DNA of 64,000 nucleotides, from IMG/VR virus record IMGVR_UViG_3300042507_004023, one strand, 5' to 3'. A program made the translations under genes and the position numbers. The first letter of the stretch is position 1, and each line of letters begins with the position of its first letter. The notes beneath the pieces were generated by a model that saw nothing but the letters and a program-made list of their open reading frames with translations, was not told where the DNA came from and did not search any database. This stretch comes from a virus. Of the stretch, positions 1 to 48,201 are shown one piece after another.

Positions 1-1422
1 AGTTTTACCAGGCACATAAATGCTCTTCGTGTCGGCAAACACGCTTGTTCCACTCATTGAAACATCAAACAAGTCTACACGCCAACGCTGACCTGTTGGG
101 CCTCCCTTGAATTCAATACCTCTAACCTTCGCTGTTCCGATAGGAGCATATGCTCCTGTTGGTGATTTATTTGAACCGAGAATAACGGTTGGGATTCTGT
201 TTAAGTTAAATCCTGTTAAGCCAAGGCTTGGGAAAGATGCGTTCGGATTTAGTTCTGCTAGAACATAAGGGCCAACAACGGAAGAGATGCGAGCATCTTC
301 AAATTCTCGTGTGGCTCTAGCCTTAGGTAGATCAATTTTAGTTACGCCTTGTGTTTCAAATTCATAACCAAAAATATACGCTTTGCCTGCACCGATTTCG
401 GCAACTAAGGTTGCTCCTGTTGCTCCATAAACTCCTTCGCTTATAGAGATTGAAAACGGATCAACAATATAGTTTCCAGATTCATCATAAGTTCTTCTCG
501 CTAGTGTGTCTCCCAACACAGCATATGATGGATATTTTTCTTTCTTGATTGTTGTCCCATCAACAATTCTTATAAATTCAACGAAATCTCGTCTTGAAAA
601 ATTATCTGTTGAAGAGGTGTTGGTTGGACTAAACTGATATTGCGTTATAGCCATTCCAATCTTATAACGATCTGCACCAGGAGCAGAATAGTTATAGAAT
701 CCAAATGATGGATCCTTTAGAGTTTCATCTTCTTCACTAGTAATAAATTCACGACTTACATTAAATCCAACCCGTGATGTTGGATTATCGTAGAGACGAA
801 CTTGAGATCCTGTAGATCCGGTTAGCGAATACGCACCAATTGTTTGCAAATCGTTTGCAACAAAGAATCCGTCAACATAACGAACTCCTGATCCGGCGTT
901 GATAAGAATCGCATTACCTAAAGCGTAACCAGTCACTCCTCCTGAAGTTACTCCAGAGATAACCATAGAAACGCTGCTTCCGTTTGGAGCAGTTCCGCCT
1001 ACCGCTAATCCGTTTGAAAATGCTGTTCCGCCTGAGGTATACTCAAAGAATATGACAGGCATATTGTCTACCGTGCTTGACGACAGACCGCTTTCTGCGT
1101 GAACGATTTTAGCGTTTGCTCTGCCTGATACTGTTAAAACTGATCCGATAGTGTCGGTTATACTCAAAGTTCCCGTTAATCCGGTAACACGAGCATATTT
1201 TACACGGTTTTCAACAACCTCTCCACCTAAAACAATTGATCCTTCTTCAAAAATATTGTCTCCAAATTTCGAGATTTGATTCTGAAGAATGGATTGAAGT
1301 TGTGTGAGTTCACGAGCCTGAATTGCATATCCCGGTCTAAACAACATTCTAAGAAACTTTTTGTTCTGATCGTAATCATCGTAATAAGGATCAACATTAA
1401 AGATGGTTGGATCGTATGTCAT
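1..1422 (-). CDS. DUF4815-type T4-like virion/baseplate structural protein (runs off the window start; partial)
   Basis: Not in the ORF track because no stop lies inside the window. Manual translation from ATG 1422: MTYDPTIFNVDPYYDDYDQNKKFLRMLFRPGYAIQARELTQLQSILQNQISKFG, later AEIGAGKAYIFGYE. AAGGAAA lies upstream; follows gp8. Confidence 0.85.
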   Translation of the reverse strand, partial: MTYDPTIFNVDPYYDDYDQNKKFLRMLFRPGYAIQARELTQLQSILQNQISKFGDNIFEEGSIVLGGEVVENRVKYARVTGLTGTLSITDTIGSVLTVSGRANAKIVHAESGLSSSTVDNMPVIFFEYTSGGTAFSNGLAVGGTAPNGSSVSMVISGVTSGGVTGYALGNAILINAGSGVRYVDGFFVANDLQTIGAYSLTGSTGSQVRLYDNPTSRVGFNVSREFITSEEDETLKDPSFGFYNYSAPGADRYKIGMAITQYQFSPTNTSSTDNFSRRDFVEFIRIVDGTTIKKEKYPSYAVLGDTLARRTYDESGNYIVDPFSISISEGVYGATGATLVAEIGAGKAYIFGYEFETQGVTKIDLPKARATREFEDARISSVVGPYVLAELNPNASFPSLGLTGFNLNRIPTVILGSNKSPTGAYAPIGTAKVRGIEFKGGPTGQRWRVDLFDVSMSGTSVFADTKSIYVPGKT

Positions 1423-1437: not shown

Positions 1438-3912
1438 TCAGAACTGGAAGAGAACCTTGATTTCCTCTCTCTGTTCAATATTTCTCTTGATTGGTTGCGT
1501 ATTCTGTATGTAGATAAGTTCACCGGAGCGATACAGGAGTTCTTCTTCGTGAACCACCGAGTTTACGAGACAATTTGCGGAACTTGACGCAGAATCTTTA
1601 AATTCTATCTGTGTTCCTGTGAATGTTCCTTTGACACCTGAAAGTCTCAAGGTTCCTGTTGTTGCTCCCACAGGGGAGAAAGACCACTCAACAACAAGTC
1701 CAGTTCCTTGGGTGGTTGCTCCTGTTATTCCCCGAACAGCAAAATCACTCGGGAAAGAAATTGTGGAGAATGGTTTAGCCTCAGTTGTAACAACCGTTAA
1801 AGTTGTGGTTTGATCGTATACTGAAACAGATTCTCGTGTAATTTCTCCAATATCCACAACTTTCGCTGTGGCTGAAACTCCTGTCGGGCCACCCAAAGTT
1901 GGGCGCATGTAGTAATCAGATTCCACCAAGTATTCAAACCGAGTTGGATATTTTGTTGGATCTTCAACATATAGAGTTCCCAATGCATTATTGCCTGGAG
2001 CGGTTTCCCACTTATTGATTATTCCCGTGAAACGAGAATTTGAAATATTATTCTGTCTGTTACCGATAGAATTTACCCACAAGCCTGGACGGAAATCTGA
2101 GCCGTCCATTCGGAACTCTGCGCCCGAAGCACCTGAAGCAGGCGAAATCTTTAGACGAAGAATTTCGCGTCCTTCGGTTCCAGCAACTGTTCTGCGATTT
2201 ATATCCAAGATTGTAAAGTTTCCGCTACTTGCCGCTCCTGTTGAAGAAGAAACAATTCCTCCACAAACAAATGCTCCTGATGTTATCGACTCAACAACAA
2301 GTTCGGATGTTCCGTTGTAACCACTAACCCCATCATTCCAAGAAACTATTCTTGCCGTTGCTGCGCTTAACCCTGTAGCACCATCAGCACCAGTTTTACC
2401 TTGTATTAGTGTTGCTCCACCTATAAAAGATCCAGACAAGCCCCATTGCTCTAGTCTAAATCTGGTTTGAGGTTTCTTTAATAGTGGGTTTTTTATAATA
2501 CCAAATTGGCGGTAGTCATTATTAACAGATAGTTTTTTTCGTTCATCTTGACTAAAATCAATCACAACCATTAACGCGGCTGCGCCCAATTCTTTTATGG
2601 CATTACTTCCATGCCCGCCCGGAGGAGACAGAACAATATTTGCAACATCGTTAATGTTTCCTGTTCCTGTGAATCCTGCTGCAAAGGTTAATCCCTTTAC
2701 AGATATAAAATTTGCTCTACTATATCCAGCACCAGTGTCAACCATTTCGAACGAATCAATCAAGGTCTGATTGTAAATGTTCGTTAGATTGCAGTTATCT
2801 CTAGAAGAAGTTACACCAGGCCCAAATTTAACGGTAATATCTGCCTCTTTAAATTTGTTTAGGTATGTTTCTCGTGAATTGCCGTCGCCTTCTATTCTGA
2901 TGTTTGGAACAATCGAAAACTTGCTAGAGTTTGCAGACAAACCAACAGTTAGAGGCTCATCTAAAGTAATTGTTCCGTAGTTACCTATGGCGGTGTAATT
3001 GTAGGTTTTGATTACACGGCGTTGCCCTTCACCAGCACCAGAATCTACCGAGAAAACTAGATCGTTATAAAAGCCATTTAGACCAATCAGATAAGGACTG
3101 TAAATTCTTATTGATCCTGTATAACCATTTGAATAGTTTTGCGAAATTGAGTTAGCATTATTCGGAGTTACACAGTTTACGGCAGTTAGATACGGACGGT
3201 ATTCTGCTCGCAGTTCTGTGAAAGCAATTTCTCCATCAATTGCGCTTTGTTGAACATTCCATTGTAGTGATCGTTCTTCATCAACAAGACGAAGATAATC
3301 CACATATTCAACAGGAATATATCCCTGCACAACAACTCTTTGAAATGCTGCGGTTGAACTTGAAGTTTCATCATATACAGTCTTTGTGATAAACTTTCTT
3401 TTGCTCTCTGGAATCATATACATGAATTTCCAGCGATATCCATCAGAAAGTTTACGAATTTCGGGATCGGTGTGTGTTGGTGCAACCGTGGATACAGAGT
3501 TATAATAGTTGTCTATGCACTTATAGACTCGGGTTTCATCAACAACCACATAAAATCTAACCGGATTTATAGGATCAAATAGATCGGAGTCGTAACGATA
3601 CGGCTCGTAAACAGATCCCAATTTCCAATCAAATCTTGGTATCACTAAAGAGGCGTTATCTTGGGTTAGCCGCTTTACAGCAACAACATTTTCCCAAAAT
3701 TCAGTTTCTGTATCGTCCGTATCGTTTGACACCGGAACGGAACTAGCATATGAGCCTGATATTCCATCTGAAATTTCTTCAGTTTTCCAAGGGTTTACTC
3801 TACCTATACTCAAGAAATAATTGTTTTCCGATGAAATCGAAAGATCTGAAAGCACCTTTTCTGAAAGGTGTCTTCTAAAATTTTGGCGTATTGGGGAGCA
3901 GGATGATGACAT
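1438..3912 (-). CDS. gp8: Baseplate wedge subunit gp8-like (824 aa)
   Basis: Motifs YFLSIGRVNPW, FYVVVDETRVYKCIDN, DGYRWKFMY, PPGGHGSNAIKELGA, NDYRQFGIIKNP, ELIYIQNTQPIKR; follows gp7. Confidence 0.85.
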   Translation of the reverse strand: MSSSCSPIRQNFRRHLSEKVLSDLSISSENNYFLSIGRVNPWKTEEISDGISGSYASSVPVSNDTDDTETEFWENVVAVKRLTQDNASLVIPRFDWKLGSVYEPYRYDSDLFDPINPVRFYVVVDETRVYKCIDNYYNSVSTVAPTHTDPEIRKLSDGYRWKFMYMIPESKRKFITKTVYDETSSSTAAFQRVVVQGYIPVEYVDYLRLVDEERSLQWNVQQSAIDGEIAFTELRAEYRPYLTAVNCVTPNNANSISQNYSNGYTGSIRIYSPYLIGLNGFYNDLVFSVDSGAGEGQRRVIKTYNYTAIGNYGTITLDEPLTVGLSANSSKFSIVPNIRIEGDGNSRETYLNKFKEADITVKFGPGVTSSRDNCNLTNIYNQTLIDSFEMVDTGAGYSRANFISVKGLTFAAGFTGTGNINDVANIVLSPPGGHGSNAIKELGAAALMVVIDFSQDERKKLSVNNDYRQFGIIKNPLLKKPQTRFRLEQWGLSGSFIGGATLIQGKTGADGATGLSAATARIVSWNDGVSGYNGTSELVVESITSGAFVCGGIVSSSTGAASSGNFTILDINRRTVAGTEGREILRLKISPASGASGAEFRMDGSDFRPGLWVNSIGNRQNNISNSRFTGIINKWETAPGNNALGTLYVEDPTKYPTRFEYLVESDYYMRPTLGGPTGVSATAKVVDIGEITRESVSVYDQTTTLTVVTTEAKPFSTISFPSDFAVRGITGATTQGTGLVVEWSFSPVGATTGTLRLSGVKGTFTGTQIEFKDSASSSANCLVNSVVHEEELLYRSGELIYIQNTQPIKRNIEQREEIKVLFQF

Positions 3913-3929
3913 ATTACCTATTATCTATA

Positions 3930-6900
3930 TTAAGTTAATTGATAGTTGAATTCCTTGACAGTTTCGCTGCCTGTAATAATGGCATTTGAAACATTTCGGA
4001 AGTATAGTTTGAGTCGATATACGCAATTTGTATTCGGATACTGATTTCCTCTCCAACTAAATGGACTTCCTACAGTTCCTCTACCCAAAGTTATTGCACC
4101 AGGCTCGCTGTTCGGATTGTCGGGATTTACGAACGGATATAGGATGTTTATGCTGTTGGCAGAGGTTGGGAAAGGCCCCACCGAAGCCATCTGATATTCC
4201 TTGCCTGTTTCATCCACCACAGACAAATCTGCCCAAAGACTTATTGCCGAGTAATACGAGAGGTATAGCAAGGTGGAAAGTCCTGCCAACTCGCCCGAAG
4301 AAATCAGAACCCCATCAAGTTGAATGTTCATGGATCGGCTACCAGGTTCACTATCAACCACATATTGAGTATCTGTGCTCCATTCCGGAATGTCTACCGA
4401 CTTTCCGTTTACAGTAACTACCTTGACTTGCGGGACAGGAGGAGTCAAAACTTCCTGATCTTTACAATTAAATTCGGGACCAACTGGCATTTCTAGGAAT
4501 GAACGAAGCGTTATCTTTCTGAATTCCGAATAGTCCACTCTAGAACCTAAAGTTGTAAGTGCAAGTATTGGGCCGTTATCTCCCGTTTCTCCCGAGGTTG
4601 ATCCGGTTTGACCTAATTCACAATTACAAGTTTCAACACAATATGTGTGATTTACTCGATACTCGGCATAACAATCTATGGGTAGACATTGACCGCAATT
4701 ATCGTATTCTTGTTGTGTTGGGCAATCGGCACACACATCGCACCCCTCAGAAACACATCCATTAGCAACACAATCCGAGCAACTTATAGATGGAGTGCAA
4801 CCGCAATCTCTACAGAAACTGTTGTTTATGCTGTATTGGTTGTCGCAATCTGATGGAGTGCATTGACTACACAGCGTGTAACTCTGTTCACAACCACAAG
4901 ACACACAGAACTCGTAATTAATTGAGGATGGATAATCGCAATCACCTTGCAAGCATTGGTTGCAGTTTGTGTATTTGCCAGGGCCATCGTAAATACACTC
5001 GTCACATTCCGTTCGGCAACGAATGCCATTACAATCATTTTTTACACACTCATCGCATAGAACTGTTGTTGGCACACAGCCACAGGTGTTTCTACAGAAT
5101 TTAGTATTAACTGTTATGCTATCACAGTCCAATTGAGTGCATTCTTCACAACTTGTGTAAATGGTTCCACAACCACAATCAACACAGAAATCATAATTTA
5201 AAGTTCCTACTGTGCAATCTGCTACTGTGCATTGTGAACACTTGGTATACTTTGTCTTGCAGCCCTCGCAGTTATAACAGCCCGAACAACCTGCACAATC
5301 GTAACTTCCTGTGATGCTGAAACAATCAAAAATTGGTGAGCAACAAGAGCAACCTGTGCAACCAGGATCTACTACCACAGCAGAACAACCCGTGCAACTG
5401 TGACAGCCTGAGCAGCCTGCACAATCATACATTCCGCTCACAATGTTGTAGCAGGGCAATCCTTCCCAAGTCGAGCAAGCCGCACATCCTGTTGGACCAG
5501 CAGATGCTCCTGTTATGGCACATCCTGTGCAACCACCAAATCCTGAACAACCCAAGCAGTCGTAAACACCCAAGAAAGTGTTCCAACATGCAAATCCATT
5601 AGCAGTAGTTCCGCAGCATAGAGCACCAGAACAAGTTGGGCCAGTTACAGGACATCCTGTGCATTGCCAGCAGCCAGAACAACCTTCACAATCATATCCT
5701 GTCGGAATATCCATTGTAAAACACGGATTAACTTGAGAACAACGATCACATCCTGTGGCTGGTGCTGTTACACCACAGCCTGTAAAGCCATAGCATCCTG
5801 AGCATCCTTCGCAATCTAGCAAACCTGTGATACGGTTATATCCTCCCGTCAAACAACATTCGCAGCCTGTGCATCCGCCTGTTACAGGACATCCTGTGCA
5901 CGAGAAGCACCCCGAGCATCCTTCGCAGTCATATAGACCTGTTACAATGTTGTAGCAACCGCCCGTCACGCTTGTTGAGCAGCAACCACAACCTGTGCAA
6001 CTAGTTGCTCCTGTGATAGAGCATCCTAGACAGCCCCAACAACCCGAGCAGCCTTGGCAATCGTAGAATCCATCAATTGTGAAGCATGGGTTTTCTTGAC
6101 TGCATAGAGCGCATCCTGTTAGACTTCCTGTTATACCGCAGCCCGTGCAACCGTTGAAGCCCGAGCATCCCACACAATCGTATATGCCTGTTACAATGTT
6201 GTAGCACAGAGTTCCACTGCCTGTGGTTCCGCAGCATGCCGTGCCACCTGAACCCGTGCAACTAGTTGCTCCTGCGGATACACCAGTGATACCACACCCT
6301 GTGCATCCAAAGCAACCCGAGCAGCCTTCACAATCGTAAAGATTTGTAGCCTTATTGAAGCAGCCACCCGTGCAGCACTCACAACCAATACAAGGAGTTG
6401 TTGTTGTGCAGCCCAAGCATCCAAAGCAGCCTGAGCAGCCTTCACAATCGTAAATTCCACTTAGAGTCCAGCAAGGAGCGTCCGAACGGCAAAGATTGCA
6501 TCCTGTTGCTCCTGTTGGGCCTTGAGGACATCCTGTGCATCCGTGGCAACCAGAACATCCTGCACAATCGTAAATACCGTCAACAGTATGGCAAAGGTTT
6601 ACAGAACTGCACAGAGCACATCCTGTTGCAGGAGCAGTTATACCGCATCCTGTGCATCCGAAGCATCCAGAGCATCCTTCGCAATCAAGCAGTCCTGTCA
6701 TTATGTTTAGACACGGGATACCAGGATGGCATGAATCGCAAGGATCTTGTGGAATAGATGGACATCCTGTGCAACCGCCAAGTCCTGAACATCCTTCACA
6801 ATCATAAACTCCCAAGAAAGTATTCCAACATGCGTTTCCGTTTGCTGTCGTTCCGCAACAACTTGGACCCGAGCAAGTTGGGCCTGTTGCAGGACATCCT

Positions 6901-9900
6901 GTGCAGCCTGGACAACCTGAACAGCCCAAACAGTCGTATAGTCCACCTAGTGTGAAGCAACCAAACTGACAACAATCGCATCCAGTGCAAGCCGTTGGGC
7001 CAGGATCTCCACCAAAAATATAAGCCCTGTCGATTTCATCGAATACAACAGGAACATAACCCATGTCTATTAGTTCTTTAATTACTGTTCCGCGAGCAAC
7101 ATCTCTGTCATTTGCTCGTGTTGGATCTCCTCCAAATCCTCGTAGAGCAGGATCGTTTGAGGAATACCAGTTGCAACCAACCCAAGTTTCGTGATCTGGT
7201 GTTAGATAGTTTGCCAAGCCAAATGACTTAGTTACATTTCGATTACCATTTGAGGCGTTAAACAAATCAAGATATGTTGCATCTTTTCTGTGCATGTAAT
7301 CAGAATTTCTACTCTCTGTAACATACTTTATTTGTCCCTCATATAGCGACAAATAAGAATTTCTAATTGACTCTGCACCTATGTAAGAAACCTCATTTGG
7401 GGCATTCGATGGATGCCAAGCATCCAATCCTATCATACCCTTTGAAACGCCTCTAGAATTTATAGTGATATTTGCGACTCTATCTAACTGATCGAGTATT
7501 AGTTGGTCATCGTATCCAGTCGATCCAAACGGATAAAGAGTTCCACCAAATTCGGTTTGATATTTCAATGAATTGCCAAACCAAAACCCGACTTGTTTAT
7601 CATCATCCAACGCATCTATCATAGATTTGAACAAAGAAACTCCATCATCCATATTATTTGTAATGGAGAATGTTGCACCTAATGGAGTAGTCCAAATTCT
7701 ATCAGGTTCGTCCCAATGCGAAACTGCTCTAACTGGATAATTTCCACTTGCTGCTGCTCCACTTGGAGTCCAAATCATAACACGATCCCAACCCTTTTTC
7801 TCTATCTGATCCTTAACATAATTTACAGGGCCAGACATACCAACCACATTTGGGTATCCTCCAGCCTGAGCAGATTTGGTTTGAATTGTATCCCAACCGT
7901 AAGGATTGTAATTAGAAGCGGTGGGACTAGAAAGGTTTACTAGGTGTTCATATCCAAAATGAACTCCTTTAACTGGTCTATAATCTGGAATATACGAATG
8001 CGGATACTTGGAGTCCAAGAAATCTTTATACACCGATAAAGTTTCAAACGCGGCAGCATCTTGTAAATTCACATCTTGTTCTATTAACGATTTTCCGCCA
8101 ATTAGATTCTGAGAAATCGGAATAGTGTTGAATTTAACAACCACTTTATAGGTTCTAGTTTCGCCTGCCGGTATTTTTGCAGAATCATACAATTGAGATT
8201 CGTTTTGTGTTGCAAATTGGAAACTATATCTATCAACATATGCCTTATAATTTTGATTTGCAGCAACACTCATCGCAACAGCCGGATTGTCTTGTGGCGG
8301 GAAAACTACAAGACTTATATCGTGACCGTAAACTTCTGGTTGATATCCAACAACAGACATACTTACAGCAAAATTGTTTTGCTCGCAACAAGCACCTTCA
8401 AACTTAGTTTTTGCGAGATGAATAGGAGAATACAAAATATCAGGATATCTTGCACTTTGAACAGAACCATTTCTGGTTATAGTTCTATAGGTTCCTATTG
8501 GGGATCCTGTTGCTCCATACAGTTTTGTATCGTAATATTCAATAGAATCACCCAAATTCAATGAAGGAGTGTCCAACCAATCTATGATTTTTTCTTCGCT
8601 GCAAGTGTTGGTATATGTGTAATTTACTTCCATTGTTCCGTCATTATCGTTTGTAATAACGGATATGTTTGGTTTGATTACCGAATTTGAACAATTTGAT
8701 GTTCCTGGTTTTGGTGGAGTCCACCCGTTGATAATGATTCTGTCACCAGGCCCATATGCATACCAAGAATCACCTATCACATCGTATTCAAAAGCAAAAT
8801 CTGTAGTTTTAGGATTGTTATACTTTTGATTCCAATAGTTTAGTGCGGCTTCGATTTGTGTATAATTTATTTTATCGGTAAGGGCGAAAACATTATCAAC
8901 TTCTGATTTACTGATTCTTGGGAAATCACCACTAACGCTAACATTACTTACAAGTTCGAATGTTGCACCTATAGCACCAAAACTAATAATATCTCCAGGG
9001 AATCCCAGGTTCACCCATCTTGGTCTTTGATTTGCGTAACTAGGATCTTTTTGTAGATCTAAAGCCTTTAGTTGTGCATCACCTGTAACTGGATTTGATG
9101 CTCCTAGACAGGTCGAATAAGGCGCATTTCCACTAGTAAATCCGTGAGTTGCACCATCAACTCCCCAATATCCCGTATCAGTTCTTGAGCCGAATGGGAC
9201 AGCGGGAGTCCAAAGGGCTACATCGTTACCAGCCTCTTGGGTAAATTGTGGTTGCCCTACAAAGAAGAAAGGCTCAACACCAATTTCAACAGTGTTTGCA
9301 TCAATCGCTTGAACTCGCTTAACATATCCTATACGATCCGCAGTGTTCCAACCTTTGTCTTGATATGATCGACCGTCAGGGTAAGAAAATACGGTGGCGG
9401 ATCCTGTTAACGAATTAAATAACGGATTTGAAATAATGTCTCCGGTTACTCCCACACCGTCACGAGATCTTATTGGAGTAGACGATAACGGATTTACTGT
9501 TCTGTAATTAAACGCAAAAGTTGTGCCTGGAGCCATGCTTAAATTTACAGAGTTTGCTCCGTTAGCAGAGAATTTCTTTATTCTGAATGTGTATTCTTTT
9601 ATACTGCCCCATTCAGGCAAATCTCTAGTTTTCTCAAAGAAAGATGGATATTTGGTTTTTAGATAAGCATACTTTTCTGGTTTGTCAAACACAAATTGAG
9701 CACCAGTTTGTCCTGTCATGCCATCAAGGAAGGCTTCATACGATAGTAAATTCATACGAGCCTGAGTTTTGGGAGTTTTGCCAGTCAATCTTGCAGGAGC
9801 GGATGCTGTTGGCCAAACCGGAGCCAAAGATCCTCCCCACCAAGGATTTCCTCCCTGTTTTCCACTTGTAATCAACCATGATACACGCGGTTTACCATTA

Positions 9901-12900
9901 AGCCCAATAGGAACTCCTGGTCCTGTTGGTGCTCCTGGTCTTAACGCTTCTCCACCAGCAAAATCCCAATATGGCTCAAATCCATAAGAAACGGTTAATG
10001 GATTTAGTTTCCAATCAATAACTGATCCATCGGCTCCAGTAATTTCAATGGTTCTTGGATTTGGAGAACTAATGGCGCATCCCCACTTTTTGGTGTAGGT
10101 ATCGTCTCCAGACCACAGATAGAACCCGTGAACTGAGCCTTTTGGATTACCCGACAAAGAACCTTCAATATACAGATTAACAAATTCTGATGGACTAAAG
10201 AAAGATCCGTCTTGTATTGATGGGGCTACTGCTCCGTATCCGCCACTTCCAGTTCCAACAGTATACGCTTTATTTGAAATGAACGGGATAATTAGCACAT
10301 TATCGTATCCCTTTTCTGCTGCAATTTCTTGCCGCCATTTAACCATTTCGGTTATGGTCAAATTTTGCAGGGCTTTTTCTGCTGCTATATTTTCTGTGGC
10401 AACATAAAAACTAGGCATCCACACATTAACATTTCTTGCATAATTCGTCCATTGTTCTTTCCACAGTTTTAAAGCGTGGTCACGATACTTGGTTCCGAAT
10501 CTAACATCCAAAATACCTAATCCGCTTGCTTTTGATGATTGGGGATCGTTAGTATCCAAAGTATCTCTGCCGTCCCAACGGCAATCGGGGCATGTTGGTG
10601 AAGGCACATAACTCTTATAATCAACGGACTTGCCATCAATTATTCTTGTTAAGGTTTCAAACTTTGAACTTCTAGCGTCTCCACTAAATCCTGGATAATC
10701 GTGATATTTCAAAATGTTTCTTGGAACTGCGTATGGCTGCCCGTAGTTTGCAAACAGGGCGTTTGGAAATTTTTGTTGCAATCCGTCAAAAGTTAGTCCA
10801 TCCGCACCAGTTCCACCAACAAATATCGGAATCATATACTTGTTCATTATAAAATTGCCGACCGAATTTGGATCATCTGGATTTGCTCGTCCTACACTGC
10901 TAGAAAAAATTGGATCCCAGGTTTCATTATTCATTGCGATCAGATTGTCATACTCGAAAGTGTAACGATTATCCCCTAAACGCAAAGTTCCTGCGCCAGA
11001 AATTCCATTCCAGTCTGGCTTAATATCTCCAAGCAAAGACGAGACAAATTTATCCATTGCTGCTTTAGAGGTATTTGTAAGCCCGTGTGTTCCTGCAACT
11101 ATACCTTTAAAAGCACCAACTTTAGGATAATGGCTGCTTGCTTCTGAATCCCAATTTGTGAATCGGTTGTATTGTAGTGTGATGTTATCCGCGTAAGATG
11201 TTTTATCTTCAGAAGTGTCTGAATTATTCAAGTTCTTTGCCAATGGGCTTAAAGAACCAATTGCCTTTACGGTTTGTGTTTCATCAATTCCAATCACTTC
11301 TCCGTTTTCATTTCTCAAGTAATAATCCAAAGTAATATCTGTTCCTGTAGACAGATTTTTTTGAGGGGTTAGATTTGAAACACTCTTGCTATTATCAGTC
11401 TTTAGTTTTTCTAGATCCTTATATCCTTGAAGAGTGAAAACATTATCATAATAAATTTTTGGCAAAAATGCGGATTGTCCTACAAGTTTATTTTGAGGAG
11501 TCAAAAACTCTTGAACAGATTGTGGTTCATAGTAGGTTTGAGTATACGGTTTAACTGGATTGTAATTCAGGGTTACATATCGTTCTCCTGAAGTGAATCC
11601 TGTCGCCCAATCTGTTCGATTTGCGGTGCTACCTTCTGTCCACTCTGCCCAATAGCCAGTATAACCGCTATTATTAGAAGAAATTCCAAAAGGAAACTCT
11701 CTGCCTGCTCCCAAATCATTCAAGAATTCGTTCTTTAGATCGTAAGGAATTCTAGCCGTAACTGAACCACGAATCTTGCGATTCGGGTGCTGATATACGA
11801 TCCAGAAAGGATCTGCGTTTTGAAAGTTTGCTGTTCTCAGAGGAACTAGAGGATTTTGGAATGCTCGGTTAAATGTTACGGGATTTCCTATAGACTTTAA
11901 ATATTCCTTTGAGGAAATTCCATCAAGCCCCGCAAGAGCAACATCACCGAAATCTATTATCCCGTTTTCATCAAGATCATTTCTTATAATCTGATTGTGA
12001 ACTGTTGGATCGTAGCCAGCCAAAAGTCCTGTGTTTGGATCCGTAAACCAGTTTGAAAGATCGTCGTAAGTTTTGAATGTATACGGTGCGTAGTGACCAA
12101 TAATCGGCACTTCGTATTCCACAAGAGATGTGCTGTTCTGCAAATCTGCAACAGCGCAACGCTTAATTTGAACTTTACCAAAGAACGCAAGACCTGCTGG
12201 ATTTAAAAGTCTCTTTAAAACATCACGATAACGATCAACAGTAACTTCACTTAAAATAACATATGAAAAGTTTTGATAGTAATGATTGTCTTGAATAACT
12301 TTATTGGTGCTTAATCTGCCGTCGTTGTTGGCGTAATAACCTTGGTATTCCGCCATTCCATTAACAGTAACAGAACCAACAAATCCGGTTCCTGCTTCAG
12401 ATTCAATTGTTATTGCGGGAGCAACCTTGTAATTAACACCATAATTATCAATCAAAATTTTTCTGATTTTACCCAAAGCGTCAACTTCAGCAACACGAGC
12501 AGAGGCTTTAACACCAGTATCTCCTTCAGCAGAGGCAAAAATAACACGATCTCCTGCTTTATACCCGCTTCCGCCGTTTGTTATTGTGATTTTTCCAATA
12601 ACAGAGAAAACTCGGTTTTCTTTACGCAAAATACCAGTTTTGTCTGTAAATTCTATGCCATCATAGCCTGCCGCAAATTGACCATTTACTCCACCCAAGA
12701 AAAGTTCAGCAATATCATTAGTTCCAACTCGATATGTGCTAACTTCAATGACTCGTCCACTTGCAGCAATATCTCCGTTCGCATCTCGTTGAACTACTGT
12801 TGCGCCAATAGAATCAAAAATAGCATTTCCTATATTGTTACTCGTCTTTATAGAACGACGGACAACCCACTTTCCGTCTGAAAGTTTCATAATATCATTC

Positions 12901-13292
12901 TTGGGATAATAGAATTCTACGGAAGTATCAAACAGAATTCTAAACAAGAAATCGTAGGTTTTTTCGGTTCCTTTTGCTCGGTAAAATCCCTTGATGTTTT
13001 TCATCAATTTTACAGGATCTACAGGCTTTTTGGTTGTCTCGGATACCGCTAGTTTTTCTGGAAACCCAAGAAGATATTCATTCTTAAAATATGAAATGAA
13101 TTCTTCTAGTGTAGAGTCAACATCAATAACGCTAGCAAGTTTCTTTGGAGATCGTAGGAAGGTGTTATCCGAATCTAACCACTCATAGTAAGCCGTAAGA
13201 AAAGCAACCAGAGTTGGATGGTCAACCCTTACAAATTCTGGTAATTGTCCTGCTATGAATGGTGATGTAGGATTAAAGTTTTTGTCTGTCAT
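3930..13292 (-). CDS. gp7: Giant gp7-like baseplate wedge initiator (3120 aa) with large inserted domains and Cys-rich repeats
   Basis: N-terminus QLPEFVRVDHPTLVAFLTAYYEWL...KNIKGFYRAKGTEKTYDFLFRILF and GRLSTNKVIQDNHYYQNFSYVI...LLNPAG match gp7-type proteins; lies between gp6 and gp8; single uninterrupted ORF. Confidence 0.8.
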   Translation of the reverse strand: MTDKNFNPTSPFIAGQLPEFVRVDHPTLVAFLTAYYEWLDSDNTFLRSPKKLASVIDVDSTLEEFISYFKNEYLLGFPEKLAVSETTKKPVDPVKLMKNIKGFYRAKGTEKTYDFLFRILFDTSVEFYYPKNDIMKLSDGKWVVRRSIKTSNNIGNAIFDSIGATVVQRDANGDIAASGRVIEVSTYRVGTNDIAELFLGGVNGQFAAGYDGIEFTDKTGILRKENRVFSVIGKITITNGGSGYKAGDRVIFASAEGDTGVKASARVAEVDALGKIRKILIDNYGVNYKVAPAITIESEAGTGFVGSVTVNGMAEYQGYYANNDGRLSTNKVIQDNHYYQNFSYVILSEVTVDRYRDVLKRLLNPAGLAFFGKVQIKRCAVADLQNSTSLVEYEVPIIGHYAPYTFKTYDDLSNWFTDPNTGLLAGYDPTVHNQIIRNDLDENGIIDFGDVALAGLDGISSKEYLKSIGNPVTFNRAFQNPLVPLRTANFQNADPFWIVYQHPNRKIRGSVTARIPYDLKNEFLNDLGAGREFPFGISSNNSGYTGYWAEWTEGSTANRTDWATGFTSGERYVTLNYNPVKPYTQTYYEPQSVQEFLTPQNKLVGQSAFLPKIYYDNVFTLQGYKDLEKLKTDNSKSVSNLTPQKNLSTGTDITLDYYLRNENGEVIGIDETQTVKAIGSLSPLAKNLNNSDTSEDKTSYADNITLQYNRFTNWDSEASSHYPKVGAFKGIVAGTHGLTNTSKAAMDKFVSSLLGDIKPDWNGISGAGTLRLGDNRYTFEYDNLIAMNNETWDPIFSSSVGRANPDDPNSVGNFIMNKYMIPIFVGGTGADGLTFDGLQQKFPNALFANYGQPYAVPRNILKYHDYPGFSGDARSSKFETLTRIIDGKSVDYKSYVPSPTCPDCRWDGRDTLDTNDPQSSKASGLGILDVRFGTKYRDHALKLWKEQWTNYARNVNVWMPSFYVATENIAAEKALQNLTITEMVKWRQEIAAEKGYDNVLIIPFISNKAYTVGTGSGGYGAVAPSIQDGSFFSPSEFVNLYIEGSLSGNPKGSVHGFYLWSGDDTYTKKWGCAISSPNPRTIEITGADGSVIDWKLNPLTVSYGFEPYWDFAGGEALRPGAPTGPGVPIGLNGKPRVSWLITSGKQGGNPWWGGSLAPVWPTASAPARLTGKTPKTQARMNLLSYEAFLDGMTGQTGAQFVFDKPEKYAYLKTKYPSFFEKTRDLPEWGSIKEYTFRIKKFSANGANSVNLSMAPGTTFAFNYRTVNPLSSTPIRSRDGVGVTGDIISNPLFNSLTGSATVFSYPDGRSYQDKGWNTADRIGYVKRVQAIDANTVEIGVEPFFFVGQPQFTQEAGNDVALWTPAVPFGSRTDTGYWGVDGATHGFTSGNAPYSTCLGASNPVTGDAQLKALDLQKDPSYANQRPRWVNLGFPGDIISFGAIGATFELVSNVSVSGDFPRISKSEVDNVFALTDKINYTQIEAALNYWNQKYNNPKTTDFAFEYDVIGDSWYAYGPGDRIIINGWTPPKPGTSNCSNSVIKPNISVITNDNDGTMEVNYTYTNTCSEEKIIDWLDTPSLNLGDSIEYYDTKLYGATGSPIGTYRTITRNGSVQSARYPDILYSPIHLAKTKFEGACCEQNNFAVSMSVVGYQPEVYGHDISLVVFPPQDNPAVAMSVAANQNYKAYVDRYSFQFATQNESQLYDSAKIPAGETRTYKVVVKFNTIPISQNLIGGKSLIEQDVNLQDAAAFETLSVYKDFLDSKYPHSYIPDYRPVKGVHFGYEHLVNLSSPTASNYNPYGWDTIQTKSAQAGGYPNVVGMSGPVNYVKDQIEKKGWDRVMIWTPSGAAASGNYPVRAVSHWDEPDRIWTTPLGATFSITNNMDDGVSLFKSMIDALDDDKQVGFWFGNSLKYQTEFGGTLYPFGSTGYDDQLILDQLDRVANITINSRGVSKGMIGLDAWHPSNAPNEVSYIGAESIRNSYLSLYEGQIKYVTESRNSDYMHRKDATYLDLFNASNGNRNVTKSFGLANYLTPDHETWVGCNWYSSNDPALRGFGGDPTRANDRDVARGTVIKELIDMGYVPVVFDEIDRAYIFGGDPGPTACTGCDCCQFGCFTLGGLYDCLGCSGCPGCTGCPATGPTCSGPSCCGTTANGNACWNTFLGVYDCEGCSGLGGCTGCPSIPQDPCDSCHPGIPCLNIMTGLLDCEGCSGCFGCTGCGITAPATGCALCSSVNLCHTVDGIYDCAGCSGCHGCTGCPQGPTGATGCNLCRSDAPCWTLSGIYDCEGCSGCFGCLGCTTTTPCIGCECCTGGCFNKATNLYDCEGCSGCFGCTGCGITGVSAGATSCTGSGGTACCGTTGSGTLCYNIVTGIYDCVGCSGFNGCTGCGITGSLTGCALCSQENPCFTIDGFYDCQGCSGCWGCLGCSITGATSCTGCGCCSTSVTGGCYNIVTGLYDCEGCSGCFSCTGCPVTGGCTGCECCLTGGYNRITGLLDCEGCSGCYGFTGCGVTAPATGCDRCSQVNPCFTMDIPTGYDCEGCSGCWQCTGCPVTGPTCSGALCCGTTANGFACWNTFLGVYDCLGCSGFGGCTGCAITGASAGPTGCAACSTWEGLPCYNIVSGMYDCAGCSGCHSCTGCSAVVVDPGCTGCSCCSPIFDCFSITGSYDCAGCSGCYNCEGCKTKYTKCSQCTVADCTVGTLNYDFCVDCGCGTIYTSCEECTQLDCDSITVNTKFCRNTCGCVPTTVLCDECVKNDCNGIRCRTECDECIYDGPGKYTNCNQCLQGDCDYPSSINYEFCVSCGCEQSYTLCSQCTPSDCDNQYSINNSFCRDCGCTPSISCSDCVANGCVSEGCDVCADCPTQQEYDNCGQCLPIDCYAEYRVNHTYCVETCNCELGQTGSTSGETGDNGPILALTTLGSRVDYSEFRKITLRSFLEMPVGPEFNCKDQEVLTPPVPQVKVVTVNGKSVDIPEWSTDTQYVVDSEPGSRSMNIQLDGVLISSGELAGLSTLLYLSYYSAISLWADLSVVDETGKEYQMASVGPFPTSANSINILYPFVNPDNPNSEPGAITLGRGTVGSPFSWRGNQYPNTNCVYRLKLYFRNVSNAIITGSETVKEFNYQLT
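4620..5258 (-). repeat. Coding Cys-rich repeat family II in gp7: 7 modules of 6 Cys
   Basis: Five long modules such as YTKCSQCTVADCTVGTLNYDFCVDCGC and YTNCNQCLQGDCDYPSSINYEFCVSCGC, plus two short ones (LCDECVKNDCNGIRCRTECDEC; SCSDCVANGCVSEGCDVCADC). Confidence 0.9.
5259..6989 (-). repeat. Coding Cys-rich repeat family I in gp7: 14 modules with core [Y/L]DCxGCSGCxxCTGC
   Basis: 14 copies counted in the translation; 120 Cys in 577 aa. Confidence 0.95.
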
Positions 13293-13300
13293 GGCTCATA

Positions 13301-15253
13301 TTAATACGGGAATGGTGCGCCAGTTTGCTGATTGATTGTGGGAACCGAGTCGAGTTCCACATTAAAATTTGATTTACTGTAGTCCAAAACTATGATTTGA
13401 TTACGCAAAGACTGTATATCGGATTTTTGAGGAATAACGGTTATTTTTATTTCAGAATCGGTTCTTGGTTCAATGTATTGTGGGTTGAAGTTATTTAGTG
13501 TGATGATACCAGTATTATAATTTATCTTGCCTATTTTGGTGTTGATATACACCTTAGTGGTTCCTTCAATTTTATAAATTCTGATATTACCGTAACCGTC
13601 GTCGTCAAGATAAGCATCAACGACCGGCTTAACTACCGCTGCGTTTGTTTGATCTTGGTATCCAAAAGCGGACGAGGAAACAATAGAAGTAAATCCGTCT
13701 ATAGGATGAAGTAAAGGATTATTAAATCGAATAGTATATGGAGAAGGTTTACCTAAAAATGGTTCAATTCTCTTTTGCAGACGAATTGAAAGATTAGTTC
13801 CTGTGATGGATTTGTTTGAATTGTCTACCAAAGAAGACAGTTTGGATGCCTTGAAATTTCTACCAAACTTGTCCAAATTTGCGGTTTCAAACGATTCAAC
13901 TGCCAGTTTAATTTGAGCGGCAAGTCCTGCGGGGCTTAAATTTGTTCTAGACGGATCGTAAGCGGAAAGAGAGTCAATTTCCAGATAAATGTAATCAGGA
14001 TCCACAATTTCTGGTTGAATTGTGACTAGATTTCTTTTGCCCAATACACTCTTTTGAATGGCTAGTTTTTCAAGAATTCCTATCTTGCTTCCATTCTTGG
14101 GCTTGATTGATATGAAAACTTTACCGTATTGTGGCGGATCATTTTCTTCCCCACCCCACACAAAGAATGAATCCACGCCTTCGCTGAACTCTTTTACCAA
14201 TATGGTTTTATAATCTTCAACTGTTACTGCTCGTTCTTGAGCCTGATAATTTCTTGGCGCGTAATACTTGATTGATTCAATGCTTTCTGGTAAGGTTCCA
14301 CCATAAGAAACAGTTGGATTCCCGTCCGGATCTGAGATGGTGGATACGCCATACGATGGAGATCCAGTTGAATCCACCTTTTGAACATATGGTGCTAGCA
14401 CTCCAGAAACATAGGAGAAAGTTCTGCAATTATTTGCAAGTTCTCCGTTTGTAAGCAGATACTCCACGCTAATCACATTTCCATTTTCTAGGGCTTTGCC
14501 TACTATCCCGTCTCCGAAGTAAATTTCAAAATTTCCATCCTCGGTTTCTTGCAAGAAATACACTAGCGAATCCGAGTTTAGCCCATTCACATCAGTTGCT
14601 TTGTTCCATATGTTTATCAGTCCTGTTGTATCTGTTACTGACTTTTGGATTCGGACTCTTAGAGTATCCACATCAATATTATTACTTGGAAGAATGAATC
14701 GTTGGGTTGGGTCAAAAGAATTTACAACAAAGGTGTATGTTCTGAGAGTTCCCTCATAAGCCTTAACATTCTTAACTGTAGCAATTCCACCAATCATATC
14801 CACTTTGTAATCATCCAAAACAACAAAGTTAAAGAAACGATTTCCTGGCAGGGTTGCTCGGAAAATATCACCTCGGTTAACAAAGGCATTACCTTTTCTT
14901 ACACGATCCTCGACCGTTTCTCCATTGGTGTTTGTTATAGTTTGTGTTCCAAATTTAACATCCAAAAATATCTTGGAGGCTTTAACCGATCTTGGTGTAT
15001 ACCCTAGTTGCTTGGCAATAGAAACTGTGCTTGAACGAAGAGCGGACGAATCCAAAAAGGCTTCATTCGCAACCATGTTTGCATAAAACGACTGGTAGTG
15101 TGTGTTGTAAGCAAGAAGATCTAGTATGATGTTCATACCCGATCCTTCAAAATCAAAATCTTTAAACTGATCTTGAGAACGAAGATAGGTCTTCAGGTTT
15201 GACTTTATTGCATCAAAGTCTAGGCCGTCAATTCTTAGGTTGGTGTTGCTCAT
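13301..15253 (-). CDS. gp6: Baseplate wedge subunit gp6
   Basis: LDFDAIKSNLKTYL..QDQFKDFDFEGSGMNIILDLLAYNTHY; AQERAVTVEDY; WGGEENDPPQYGKVFISIKP; DDDGYGNIR. Confidence 0.95.
   Translation of the reverse strand: MSNTNLRIDGLDFDAIKSNLKTYLRSQDQFKDFDFEGSGMNIILDLLAYNTHYQSFYANMVANEAFLDSSALRSSTVSIAKQLGYTPRSVKASKIFLDVKFGTQTITNTNGETVEDRVRKGNAFVNRGDIFRATLPGNRFFNFVVLDDYKVDMIGGIATVKNVKAYEGTLRTYTFVVNSFDPTQRFILPSNNIDVDTLRVRIQKSVTDTTGLINIWNKATDVNGLNSDSLVYFLQETEDGNFEIYFGDGIVGKALENGNVISVEYLLTNGELANNCRTFSYVSGVLAPYVQKVDSTGSPSYGVSTISDPDGNPTVSYGGTLPESIESIKYYAPRNYQAQERAVTVEDYKTILVKEFSEGVDSFFVWGGEENDPPQYGKVFISIKPKNGSKIGILEKLAIQKSVLGKRNLVTIQPEIVDPDYIYLEIDSLSAYDPSRTNLSPAGLAAQIKLAVESFETANLDKFGRNFKASKLSSLVDNSNKSITGTNLSIRLQKRIEPFLGKPSPYTIRFNNPLLHPIDGFTSIVSSSAFGYQDQTNAAVVKPVVDAYLDDDGYGNIRIYKIEGTTKVYINTKIGKINYNTGIITLNNFNPQYIEPRTDSEIKITVIPQKSDIQSLRNQIIVLDYSKSNFNVELDSVPTINQQTGAPFPY
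13492..13499 (-). promoter_or_regulatory. Possible internal late promoter ACTAAATA for gp7
   Basis: Matches the window's late motif ~200 nt upstream of the gp7 start, but lies inside gp6 coding sequence and could be chance. Confidence 0.35.
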
Positions 15254-15639
15254 CGTGTCCTCTCTAACAGTATATTGGTTTCCAAAACTTGGGGTCTATT
15301 TGCGATTGTAAACTTGATGTTTAAGGTGACTGAGTTTTTGTCAGGCTCCGCATAAAAACCAACGGCTAGATTATTTACTCGGGGTTCATATTTTCGTATT
15401 AGTTCTTCAATTTGCCCTTGCAATACACTATAAACAACGGGGCTAGGATTTTCAAACAGTAAATCTTGAATGCCTGAAGACACTTCGGGATGAAATGGCT
15501 TTTCAAATCTACGAAGCAAAATCAAATTTCTAAGACTTCTTTTAACAGCATCCTCATTGATTTTGATGGTTACATCTCTATCAATATAATTTGGCTGAAA
15601 GTTCAGGTCTAAATCAATGAAATAGTTTTTACTTGCCAT
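15250..15639 (-). CDS. gp25: Baseplate wedge subunit gp25
   Basis: DLDLNF...NEDAVKRSLRNLIL..RFEKPFHPE..SGIQDLLFE...IRKYEPRV...LERTR. Confidence 0.93.
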   Translation of the reverse strand: MASKNYFIDLDLNFQPNYIDRDVTIKINEDAVKRSLRNLILLRRFEKPFHPEVSSGIQDLLFENPSPVVYSVLQGQIEELIRKYEPRVNNLAVGFYAEPDKNSVTLNIKFTIANRPQVLETNILLERTR

Positions 15640-16577: not shown

Positions 16578-17575
16578 TAGTCGAAATATCCTCTCCTTTT
16601 CATACCCAAAAGGTATTCTCGGTTTGTAACGGGTTTCCCGTCTAAAAAGAATTGATTATCAATATTTAGGATCAAACGATCACGATCCGAAGACCAGTTG
16701 TTTGTTATAGTCATAGTGAATTCTCGGTCATTGAAAACTCTAGGATCACGGGCGTTAAATGCTCTTATTGTGAACCTAACCGTATTAGTTGCAGGTATTC
16801 CGTTTGAAAATGAAGATGAAGATCCAAAGGTTGCGTAGTTTTTTTCTGTAATTCTAAAGTCAGGCGGTAGTCTCCACCTCTCTATAAAGTAGTCTTTACT
16901 GTTTGGATCACCCGGATTATCAGGCAAATCCATCTCAGAAATAAAACCAGAAGCAACGCCAGTTTCCATATCAAGCACTAAATCTGGAGGAAATTCTCCT
17001 CCAACTACCATGTATTTGATGTCACAGCATTCGTTGCAGGTATATCTCATCTCATACCTAGACGCATAAACACCAACTGTGGATGTGGTTGCGGGGCCAG
17101 GTGAAGGATAGGCGTAGAATGCAACTCTTTTACTTTCTTTTGATATGGTCTGCAATTCTCGAAACGAACCAAGATTTGAATTAACATTTGCAAACGGAAA
17201 ACTGCTTACTCCGTTTGCACCACCAAATAAAATCAAACATCCTGCTCCAGAATAAGATTGAGAAGTGCTTGTGACAAGTTCGCCCCCTGCACCACCCGAA
17301 GCCCCGTAGGTGGTAAATCCGGTAACTCCAACAGCACGACATCCCGTGCCCTCTTGTATCTTAACGCCATCTATGGAATATGGGCCATTTGGATAGTAAA
17401 ATTCGGGAGGTCGCATTCCTTTATGGTTGTATTTTCCAAGCCAACCTGTCCATTCCACAGAACCTGTATTACTGTAAGACTCAGAGCCATCACTAATATG
17501 ACATTCCGCAGGAATCGAGTATATTAAATTGTATGGGCTTTGAGTGTAAGCACCAACAGATCTAAATCTTGGCAT
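16577..17575 (-). CDS. Hypothetical baseplate-associated protein, probable Ig-like domain
   Basis: YMVVGGEFPPDLVLDMETGVASG...FTIRA resembles putative-Ig (He_PIG-type) repeats; translationally coupled to gp5 and PAAR. Confidence 0.5.
   Translation of the reverse strand: MPRFRSVGAYTQSPYNLIYSIPAECHISDGSESYSNTGSVEWTGWLGKYNHKGMRPPEFYYPNGPYSIDGVKIQEGTGCRAVGVTGFTTYGASGGAGGELVTSTSQSYSGAGCLILFGGANGVSSFPFANVNSNLGSFRELQTISKESKRVAFYAYPSPGPATTSTVGVYASRYEMRYTCNECCDIKYMVVGGEFPPDLVLDMETGVASGFISEMDLPDNPGDPNSKDYFIERWRLPPDFRITEKNYATFGSSSSFSNGIPATNTVRFTIRAFNARDPRVFNDREFTMTITNNWSSDRDRLILNIDNQFFLDGKPVTNREYLLGMKRRGYFD
16663..16670 (-). promoter_or_regulatory. Possible internal late promoter CCTAAATA for the PAAR-gp25-gp6 block
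   Basis: Late motif 86 nt upstream of the PAAR start, inside coding sequence. Confidence 0.35.
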
Positions 17576-46458: not shown

Positions 46459-48201
46459 ATGGCATTCCAATTAAGTCCTGGCGTAAATGTAACTGAAAAA
46501 GATCTAACCACAATCGTTCCTGCTGTAGCAACAACCTCGGCAGGTATGGCTGGCTTGTTTGAGTGGGGCCCTGTAGGGCTTCCCGTTCTTGTCAGCACCG
46601 TTCAAGAACTAGGTGCTCTTTACGGCTTACCTAGAGAATCAAACTATGAGTGGTGGTTTACTGCTTATAACTATCTCGGATACGGTAATAATCTTAAAGT
46701 TGTTCGCTGTGTTGACGAAGGCGCAACAGGTGCTAAGAACGCAACCCCAAGTGGTCTAACCGCAGCACTAGTAAAAGTTCCTTCAGATGCAGAAAGCATT
46801 GTTCCAGGCACAAACGGTTCATTCATGGCTCGTTATGCTGGTGAACTAGGAAACTCGCTATGGGTTGATCTTTGCGGTGGAGCAACCAGTGGTGGCGCAG
46901 GTGCAACATTCGGTTCTTGGACATTCAAGAGCCTGTTCGGTGTTACGCCAACCCAAACCTCTTACGCAGATCGTCTAGGTCTAAGCGGATCAAACGATGC
47001 ATTCCACCTTGTTGTGGTGGATAAAGACGGTAAGTTTAGCGGAGCCCCTGGAACTGTTCTAGAGCGTTACGAAAATGTTTCAATCATTCCTGGTGCAGTA
47101 AACTCGGATGGAACTTCTTTGTTCTACAAGAGCAAGATTAATGCCGAATCGCGTTACATTGTAACCACAGGTAGTTTGGCTGCATTTGACGGAACCACAT
47201 TTGCCACAGGATTCACCGCAGGTGGAACAAGCGTAGTTGCCTTCACCAAGTCTGGTGATAACTACACCTCGGGCGGTGCATATTACGCCAAGATGAACGG
47301 CGGAACCGGTCAATTCTCGGGCGCAAGTGATATTGTAGGAAAGATTGACAACGGATTCGAGGCTTTCTCTGATCCTGACAAGGTTGATGTTGCTCTGCTT
47401 CTTGGTGGCCCACTAAGCGGCAATCAAGCACAGCAATTGTGCGATATCGCCAAGGCTCGTAAGGATTGCGTAGCCTTTGTTTCTACTCCAAATAAGAATT
47501 CCGCAGACAGTTCTTCAACCAAGTTGGCAAACTGCTCAACTCTAAGAACTGCTGTTGGTAACAACAACTACGCATTCATCGACAGCGGTTACAAATACAT
47601 GTATGATCCGTTCAACGATGTGTATCGCTATGTTCCGCTGAACGGTGATACCGCAGGGTTGTGCGTCAGAACCGACATCACAAACGATCCTTGGTGGTCG
47701 CCAGCAGGCTTCAACCGTGGTCAAGTTCGTAATGTTGTAAAGTTGGCATTCAATCCAAGCAAGGCTGAACGCGACACAATTTATTCAAACGGAGTTAACC
47801 CTGTTGTTACCTTCTCGGGCGAAGGAACTGTGTTGTTCGGTGACAAGACTGCACAAACAAGACCATCGGCTTTCGACCGTATCAATGTTCGTCGTCTGTT
47901 CATCGTGCTTGAGAAGGCGATTGCAACCGCTGCCAAGTATAGCCTGTTCGAATTCAATGATGCATTCACCCGAGCCCAATTCAAGTCGCTAGTAGAACCA
48001 TTCCTACGCGATGTTCAGGCTCGTCGTGGCATCACCGATTTCAAGGTTGTATGCGATGAGAAGAATAACACACCACAAGTTATCGACAGCAACAACTTTG
48101 TTGCCGACATCTATGTGAAGCCAAATCGTAGCATCAACTTCATTCAGTTGAACTTTGTTGCTACCAAGACAGGCGTTTCGTTCGAAGAAGTAGGAGCCTA
48201 A
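46459..48201 (+). CDS. gp18: Tail sheath protein gp18
   Basis: MAFQLSPGVNVTEKDLT; WWSPAGFNRG; FDRINVRRLF; KPNRSINFIQLNFVA. Confidence 0.98.
   Translation: MAFQLSPGVNVTEKDLTTIVPAVATTSAGMAGLFEWGPVGLPVLVSTVQELGALYGLPRESNYEWWFTAYNYLGYGNNLKVVRCVDEGATGAKNATPSGLTAALVKVPSDAESIVPGTNGSFMARYAGELGNSLWVDLCGGATSGGAGATFGSWTFKSLFGVTPTQTSYADRLGLSGSNDAFHLVVVDKDGKFSGAPGTVLERYENVSIIPGAVNSDGTSLFYKSKINAESRYIVTTGSLAAFDGTTFATGFTAGGTSVVAFTKSGDNYTSGGAYYAKMNGGTGQFSGASDIVGKIDNGFEAFSDPDKVDVALLLGGPLSGNQAQQLCDIAKARKDCVAFVSTPNKNSADSSSTKLANCSTLRTAVGNNNYAFIDSGYKYMYDPFNDVYRYVPLNGDTAGLCVRTDITNDPWWSPAGFNRGQVRNVVKLAFNPSKAERDTIYSNGVNPVVTFSGEGTVLFGDKTAQTRPSAFDRINVRRLFIVLEKAIATAAKYSLFEFNDAFTRAQFKSLVEPFLRDVQARRGITDFKVVCDEKNNTPQVIDSNNFVADIYVKPNRSINFIQLNFVATKTGVSFEEVGA

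Follow-up and report, generated by a model that had tools for sequence, protein, structure and literature searches.

Giant gp7 fusions were described by Sullivan and others in the Prochlorococcus myophages P-SSM2 (orf113) and P-SSM4 (orf080), where they were read as fibres anchored in the baseplate (Sullivan et al., 2005; PMC1079782). In pelagimyophages, cyanomyophages, rhizophages and the Listeria phage A511, the gp7 of T4 is replaced by VrlC-type proteins (PMC7029224, PMC4621102), and the gp7-like peripheral parts of contractile systems sit along the baseplate's lateral face, where they are evolutionary hotspots (PMC8894135). The present work concerns a stretch of 64,000 nucleotides of viral DNA, the IMG/VR record IMGVR_UViG_3300042507_004023 (hereafter the window, meaning the whole stretch), in which the gp7-type gene of an uncultured freshwater T4-like myovirus occupies positions 3930..13292 on the minus strand and encodes, from an ATG start, 3120 amino acids (aa) followed by a stop codon. 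Comparison with shorter relatives places a cassette of some 2300 aa inside this wedge protein, and we consider, with a probability of about 60%, that the cassette serves as an accessory host-recognition appendage, a function that would follow from its position, its make-up and its variability.

The kind of protein is already known, since giant gp7 fusions were published in 2005; what is new here is a mapped internal insertion site, a series of empty, fused and split alleles, a set of orphan modules, and a repeat stalk built on paired cysteines. Like P-SSM2 orf113 and P-SSM4 orf080, whose products were taken to attach to the baseplate by way of their gp7-like region, the window gene is a very large open reading frame (ORF) with a region of gp7 homology, and the PHROG families that match its core are baseplate-wedge families, several of them with profiles 3000-6000 positions long. 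Unlike the cyanophage genes, it carries its extra mass internally, with a conserved tail after it, and its short and split alleles are documented. With the VrlC-type proteins it shares the locus and the conserved core, the matches in cyanophages being annotated as VrlC or as structural protein, and the nearest isolates by capsid are pelagimyophages, Pelagibacter phage HTVC008M and the Methylophilales Melnitz phages having capsid proteins about 60% identical to that of the window. It differs from most VrlC-type members, of 560-850 aa, by its roughly 2300 extra residues with unannotated domains. A further likeness is offered by Alg12/Afp12/Pvc12 of extracellular contractile injection systems, whose gp7-like part is an evolutionary hotspot (PMC8894135), comparable to the three insertion sites found here; however, these are fused gp6-gp7 proteins of bacterial systems, and the likeness lies in the shared wedge concept. 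No phage isolate matched the gp7-type gene at the DNA level by megablast, and a tblastn search of 50,697 phage records gave matches confined to aa ~120-470 of the window protein, with neither the cassette modules nor the Cys repeats present in any isolate.

The insertion was delimited by BLAST mapping of the window protein onto giant relatives of 2320-4235 aa and onto the best 120 of 257 shorter relatives, most of the family members found being 560-850 aa long. In an 800-aa relative (P0012), residues 6-584 correspond to residues 7-587 of the window protein at 73% identity, and residues 585-799 continue directly with residues 2897-3119 at 57% identity. Forms of 796-809 aa behave likewise, aligning to residues 1-587 at 62-73% and then directly to residues 2897/2913-3119 at 48-57%, and about 100 more distant relatives pass from residue 578 to residue 2922 after only 2-3 residues; over the shorter relatives in general, the spacing stays within 2-25 residues. 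An insert of ~540 aa occupies the same 578/2922 site in relatives of ~1350 aa, while the minimal forms of ~575 aa stop 12-20 residues past the tail motif. One of the short forms, of 804 aa, lies between gp6 and gp8 in the same order gp25-gp6-[gp7]-gp8. As the flanks are contiguous in the short forms, some 2300 aa have been inserted at the very site named in the original prediction, which had been made from the letters of this DNA and its ORFs. The two motifs quoted there, TSGERYVTLNYNP at the upstream edge (aa 567-579, window ~11556-11594, ending in ...LNY) and EFRKITLRSFLEMP at the downstream edge (aa 2922-2935, window ~4488-4529, EFRKIT...), are nearly exact as boundaries and, by these alignments, are the true edges of the insertion.

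Downstream of the insertion stands the tail motif (aa 2915-2965, SEFRKITLRSF...; 4398..4550, minus strand), which follows the core directly in the ~100 shorter relatives and is found near the C-terminus of the ~575-aa forms. It is followed by the short C-terminal domain that had also been predicted (aa 2966-3120; 3933..4397, minus strand), common to the 796-809-aa forms, the ~1350-aa forms and the split form gp7C described below. A predicted complex of the P0012 core with the tail and C-terminal domain received a score of 0.00, which gives no answer either way. Across the relatives the core has three insertion sites, near residues 206/318, 436/493 and 578/2922 of the window protein. At the first of these, relatives that bear a YHYH (PF14240) domain hold an insert of ~1480 aa, and at the second, other relatives hold RCC1 repeats; the proteins using these two further sites are P0009-P0011 (3507-4003 aa) and P0024-P0029. 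In P0076, EF-hand domains follow the tail motif.

The conserved core (aa 1-578; 11559..13292, minus strand) is 74-94% identical among the giant relatives, and its assignment to gp7 was supported by profile, structural and positional evidence. It matched phrog_17744 (9.4e-58) and, at aa 82-138, the baseplate wedge subunit family PF23786 with 44.3 bits against a cut-off of 27, a family matched also by all seven of the full-length giant relatives; the only other Pfam match on the window protein was a weak one to gp18 domain I (PF22639). A profile built from 43 short relatives matched the T4-type gp7 9f4a_AY at residues 734-759 and 863-899 (whole-sequence E 3.6e-6), which correspond to aa 102-127 and 342-378 of the window protein. 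AlphaFold2 (AF2) models were made with family alignments for aa 1-1200 and 1186-2385, with mean predicted local distance difference test (pLDDT) values of 46 and 37, and their sole confident part was the beta domain of ~180 residues at aa 140-318 (12339..12875, minus strand). This domain could be superposed on residues 763-847 of 9f4a_AY with a VIA Z of 9.4 and a root-mean-square deviation of 2.5 Å, well above unrelated rows, and it also resembles domain I of the sheath protein gp18 (VIA Z 9.0-9.1); Foldseek returned T4 gp7 (5iv5, E 9e-4) as the best match. Because the three matches to the solved gp7 are colinear, the window protein is a gp7 homologue, and its N-terminus is equivalent to the C-terminal conserved third of T4-type gp7.

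The neighbourhood agrees with this assignment. A gp6-type wedge gene lies directly upstream (13301..15253, minus strand; phrog_219, 9.5e-173) with gp25 beyond it (15250-15639), a gp8-type wedge gene lies directly downstream (1438..3912, minus strand; phrog_438, 1.7e-58), and the gene order around gp7 is conserved in L001, L009 and G003. With the synteny gp25-gp6-X-gp8, PF23786 above its cut-off and the three colinear matches, the gp7 identity that had been proposed is upheld, but the "gp7-type N-terminus" is not that of T4 gp7: every match falls at residues ~734-899 of the 1032-aa protein, in its C-terminal core, and T4 gp7 residues 1-730 have no sequence or structure match in the window protein. 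The T4 protein places ~730 residues of peripheral domains before the core, whereas the window protein begins with the core (aa ~102-378 being colinear with 734-899) and carries its variable mass after it. By analogy with T4, the protein is assumed to form a heterotrimer with two gp6 subunits, one copy per wedge, and six copies per baseplate would be expected. As a separate observation, the sheath protein of the window (46459-48201, plus strand) has just 580 aa, while the gp7 core bears a domain resembling gp18 domain I at 12339-12875 (minus strand).

A long ORF recovered from metagenomic DNA, with internal protein repeats and with split versions in its relatives, could in principle be an assembly chimera or could conceal a frameshift or a stop codon, yet this explanation is very improbable. 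The translation of 3930..13292 contains no internal stop. Near-identical copies of the stretch were found in 20 runs from 17 lake and freshwater studies, and contigs from other studies were compared with it over window positions 3500-13700. One contig of 7504 nt spans positions 3500-10736 and another of 2823 nt spans 10738-13560; both differ from the window by substitutions only, with no indel and no joint inside, and a small strain bubble lies between them. These contigs cross both insertion junctions, the fusion point at ~8190 and the entire repeat region. The strain from the other study differs by 28 substitutions, of which 22 are synonymous and 6 change an amino acid, and its frame remains open. 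Tandem Repeats Finder (TRF) found no long DNA tandem repeats prone to assembly collapse, the protein repeats having diverged at the DNA level, and a giant relative of 3166 aa (P0003) is colinear with the window protein from end to end at 58% identity. The intact 3120-aa ORF between gp6 and gp8 is real, and neither the misassembly nor the hidden stop that the original prediction had asked about was found.

The layout of the insertion was set from the block structure of homologues (for module B, from P0004 and P0002), and all its parts are encoded on the minus strand. It opens with linker 1 (aa 579-720; 11133..11558), which is 29-41% identical where cores are 74-94% identical, and continues with the mixed alpha/beta module A (aa 721-1185; 9738..11132; 48-62% identity among relatives) and the beta-rich module B (aa 1186-1678; 8259..9737), for which weak beta-sandwich fold matches were obtained. 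A junction motif, J (aa 1679-1705; 8178..8258; NYKAYVDRYSFQFAT...ESQL), separates these from module C (aa 1706-2095; 7008..8177), of alternating beta/alpha structure with weak hints of a TIM-barrel glycosidase-like fold. The Cys-rich repeats follow, and the insertion ends in a Gly/Ser/Thr-rich linker 2 (aa 2894-2914; 4551..4613). Two probable globular domains had been predicted, and the globular region is confirmed at aa ~720-2095; however, it comprises three modules and not two. In relatives, a further module X of ~500 aa is inserted just upstream of J, the gene is split just after J, and some proteins add an RCC1 propeller after module A.

No relationship among modules A, B, C and X was found by hhalign, and none of the four had a significant Pfam, NCBIfam or PDB sequence match (C at E up to 5), while a PDB profile search of the whole family returned only the gp18-like piece and nothing for the insert. 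When aa 700-1899 were searched with phmmer against 1.84 billion representative proteins, seven matches were obtained, five of them to the same giant family or its fragments and two of them weak (E ~1e-4), of doubtful kinship and without a Pfam match; the module A region gave the giant family itself alone. A word-based search with aa 600-2100 among shorter proteins gave three matches, all fragments or split forms of the family. In the ESM Atlas, module A fell among unnamed viral clusters with one GH56 row at 0.85, below the reliable value of 0.9, and module C had no usable match. The GH56 hyaluronidase candidate for module A was not supported, PF01630 being absent from the window protein (E up to 5) and from the records of three relatives (E up to 10). 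For module C, the AF2 model has pLDDT 50-79 over aa ~1815-1995 with alternating strands and helices; from this model, VIA gave Z values of 6.0-7.5 over ~190-200 residues to GH20 and GH29 barrels, and the Foldseek top match was a GH36-type enzyme (9awt_A), a weak one at E 6e-4. Module C belongs to no known sequence family, its sole Pfam row being PF21200 with 16.4 bits against a cut-off of 27, and a TIM-barrel glycosidase-like fold is possibly present, as a lead only.

The ~790 aa of Cys-rich repeats that had been predicted are located at aa 2096-2893 and are of two types. Type 1 (aa 2096-2679; 5256..7007, minus strand) consists of 14 units of 38-52 aa that end in DCxGCSGCxGCxGC and hold 8 or 10 Cys each, and one relative has 18 such units against the 14 of the window protein. 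Type 2 (aa 2680-2893; 4614..5255, minus strand) consists of about seven Gly-poor units of the form CxxCxxxDC...[FY]CxxCGC. In their short tandem units, even and conserved number of Cys, pairwise loss of Cys and long stalk, these repeats recall the disulfide-rich EGF-like arrays of eukaryotic extracellular proteins (~40-aa modules), but this is a likeness of kind only: no sequence or family match was obtained, and the GC-x-GC-x-GC core differs from EGF. A phmmer search of the Cys regions against the PDB gave nothing significant, and a literature search for Cys-rich repeats in baseplates found nothing.

The number of Cys is even (6, 8 or 10) in all 82 units compared across six proteins, and losses of Cys come in twos. 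P0003/P0004 have lost together, in units 4 and 6, the Cys that precedes the conserved aromatic residue and the core's fourth Cys; unit 10 lacks these two in all five proteins, and a further two of its Cys were lost jointly. As the losses are pairwise and the counts are not multiples of four, intra-unit disulfides are favoured over Zn(Cys)4 sites. Metal binding, be it by DnaJ-like (CxxCxG) Zn(Cys)4 knuckles, Fe-S clusters or metallothionein-like clusters, would account for the overlapping CxxC and CxGC motifs of the units, and zinc sites fold readily in a reducing cytoplasm where disulfides do not. We nevertheless regard it as unlikely: units with 6 or 10 Cys do not fit sets of four, Cys disappear in twos from units that are otherwise preserved, and no Pfam or NCBIfam zinc-finger or metallothionein model matched, even at E up to 5.

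Close relatives differ in the state of this gene. On one contig (G003), seven flanking proteins are 97.6-100% identical to those of the window, yet gp7 is split and the region encodes proteins of 2359, 884 and 1606 aa. The first of these, gp7N, holds the core, modules A, B and X, J and a 28-aa tail, and the last, gp7C, begins with MGSTAKLAPGETR and holds module C and 18 Cys units as well as the tail motif and C-terminal domain. The 884-aa protein between the two halves is heparinase II/III-like (PF07940, 1.6e-9; L007:5087-7741, IMGVR_UViG_3300013372_003487) and has no counterpart in the window by tblastn. The position of the split stop recurs in three other relatives (P0005, P0006 and P0007), and a second gp7C is known (P0133). 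Since the fused forms share one junction after J, the split form looks derived. The domains of the predicted insertion do occur as separate genes (2359 aa and 1606 aa), but the flanks align contiguously and the insertion stands. The existence of separate-gene homologues implies that covalent continuity is not essential, and the tail motif can work from a separate chain, because gp7C carries it on its own polypeptide.

At the DNA level, G003 and the window are 63-77% identical wherever modules A, B and C and the Cys units at the start of the repeats can be aligned, and 91.6% identical from window position 6200 downstream, so that the comparison is mosaic. In a tree of the cores, the 800-aa P0012 and P0013 nest within the giant clade, where P0003 and P0004 are their sister group (support 99/97), and modules A, B and C, at 48-71% identity where cores have 74-94%, are the least conserved folded parts. 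Taken together, the split alleles, the mosaic identity, the nesting of short forms and the divergence of the modules indicate that the locus is a recombining, hypervariable cassette, a pattern that, as read from these sequences, would be expected of parts in contact with the host. Two observations stand beside this. A 151-nt contig from run X6 matches just window positions 8207-8240 (34 bases, within J), with unrelated sequence on both sides, and would fit J as a shared join between divergent alleles. In L002 (IMGVR_UViG_3300045125_000034), which was left out of the analysis, the gp7 region appears as a series of numerous short ORFs, which may reflect a low-quality assembly or a decayed copy.

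From these elements the following architecture is proposed. The core (aa 1-578) and the tail motif (aa 2915-2965) would build the protein into the baseplate, while the cassette of modules A, B and C, followed by a stalk of ~21 Cys units, would project from the baseplate periphery, a placement suggested by the lateral position and hotspot character of gp7-like parts in other contractile systems (PMC8894135). Linkers that are poorly conserved or rich in Gly/Ser/Thr bound the cassette at both ends. Disulfides within each unit, formed after the virion reaches oxic water, would make the repeats stiff, and the globular modules would bind or cut glycans on the host surface. A projecting position, a stiff stalk and glycan-acting modules would together make an accessory host-recognition appendage. 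The cassette is exchanged by recombination: siblings carry a split version and slightly more distant relatives carry none. The glycan theme is weakly suggested by the fold matches of module C and by the heparinase-like gene between the split halves. Several points weigh against this proposal: the barrel matches of module C remain below Z 8, a level that the tool itself counts among those reached by chance arrangements; no residue of module C could be named as catalytic; none of the inserted modules could be folded with confidence (mean pLDDT 46 and 37); and the disulfides must form outside the reducing cytoplasm of the host.

The same architecture could be turned around, with the protein anchored by its N-terminal core alone, the cassette acting as a stalk, and the tail motif and C-terminal domain forming a distal tip, for example a receptor-binding one, which in the short forms would sit directly on the baseplate. 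Fibres usually consist of a repeat stalk that leads to a tip, in many relatives the tail motif precedes other domains of variable kind, and in the split form the tail motif and C-terminal domain belong to a polypeptide of their own, gp7C. Against this, the tail motif is almost invariant in ~100 relatives and is kept in the ~575-aa forms, which end 12-20 residues later and have no tip domain; its retention in such tip-less minimal forms is more in keeping with a structural part of the baseplate than with a linker to a tip. It is also modules A, B and C that are most variable, and not the C-terminal domain. We regard a distal tip as a doubtful arrangement, although one that deserves consideration.

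The cassette might also have no part in host recognition and instead supply structural bulk for a larger or second baseplate layer, or serve in sticking to particles or other virions. Large double-ringed baseplates have been associated with gp7 substitutes of VrlC type (PMC4621102, PMC7029224), and no binding or catalytic site was identified in the cassette. However, a purely structural layer is unlikely to be absent, fused or split among close relatives, and the cassette is the most divergent stretch between phages that are otherwise 98% identical, which is unexpected for a structural layer; this explanation appears distinctly improbable. Returning to the host-recognition appendage, a bolder version can be stated only tentatively and is itself improbable in all its parts at once: each wedge would display a loop of ~2300 residues anchored at both ends, with the tail motif as its closing strand, which a second gene could also supply in trans; absent, fused and split alleles would coexist in one population; the Cys units would form a new family of disulfide-knotted repeats in a bacterial virus; and modules A, B, C and X would be new families of carbohydrate-active proteins.

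The surrounding genes belong to a T4-like tail and baseplate module, which includes a gp5-like hub of 744 aa (17575-19809, minus strand), and farther along the window genes were found for a tube cap, tape measure, fibre, terminase, sheath, portal and major capsid protein. Hub and lysozyme PHROGs match the first ~316 residues only of the gp5-like protein (17575-19809, minus strand). The beginning of the window (1-1422, minus strand) encodes the first 474 aa of the gene after gp8, 98% identical to a DUF4815 protein (PF16075) of a sister phage, in which this gene is complete at 1695 aa (L007:15081-20168). Among the structural and replication genes, two ORFs (55466-57094, 542 aa, and 60295-62037, 580 aa, both on the plus strand) had no PHROG match at 1e-5.

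The hosts and the receptor-binding machinery of the abundant uncultured T4-like phages of freshwater and marine waters are largely unknown. This locus offers a precisely mapped site in a wedge protein that tolerates 0, ~500 or 2300-3400 extra residues, and, in modules A, B and C together with X in relatives, some 1900 globular residues that have no relatives outside a small group of phages. The covariation of Cys in the repeat family predicts disulfide pairing in a virion protein that is made in the cytoplasm. Finally, the fused, split and empty alleles carried by almost identical genomes furnish natural material on the putative appendage and on host range.

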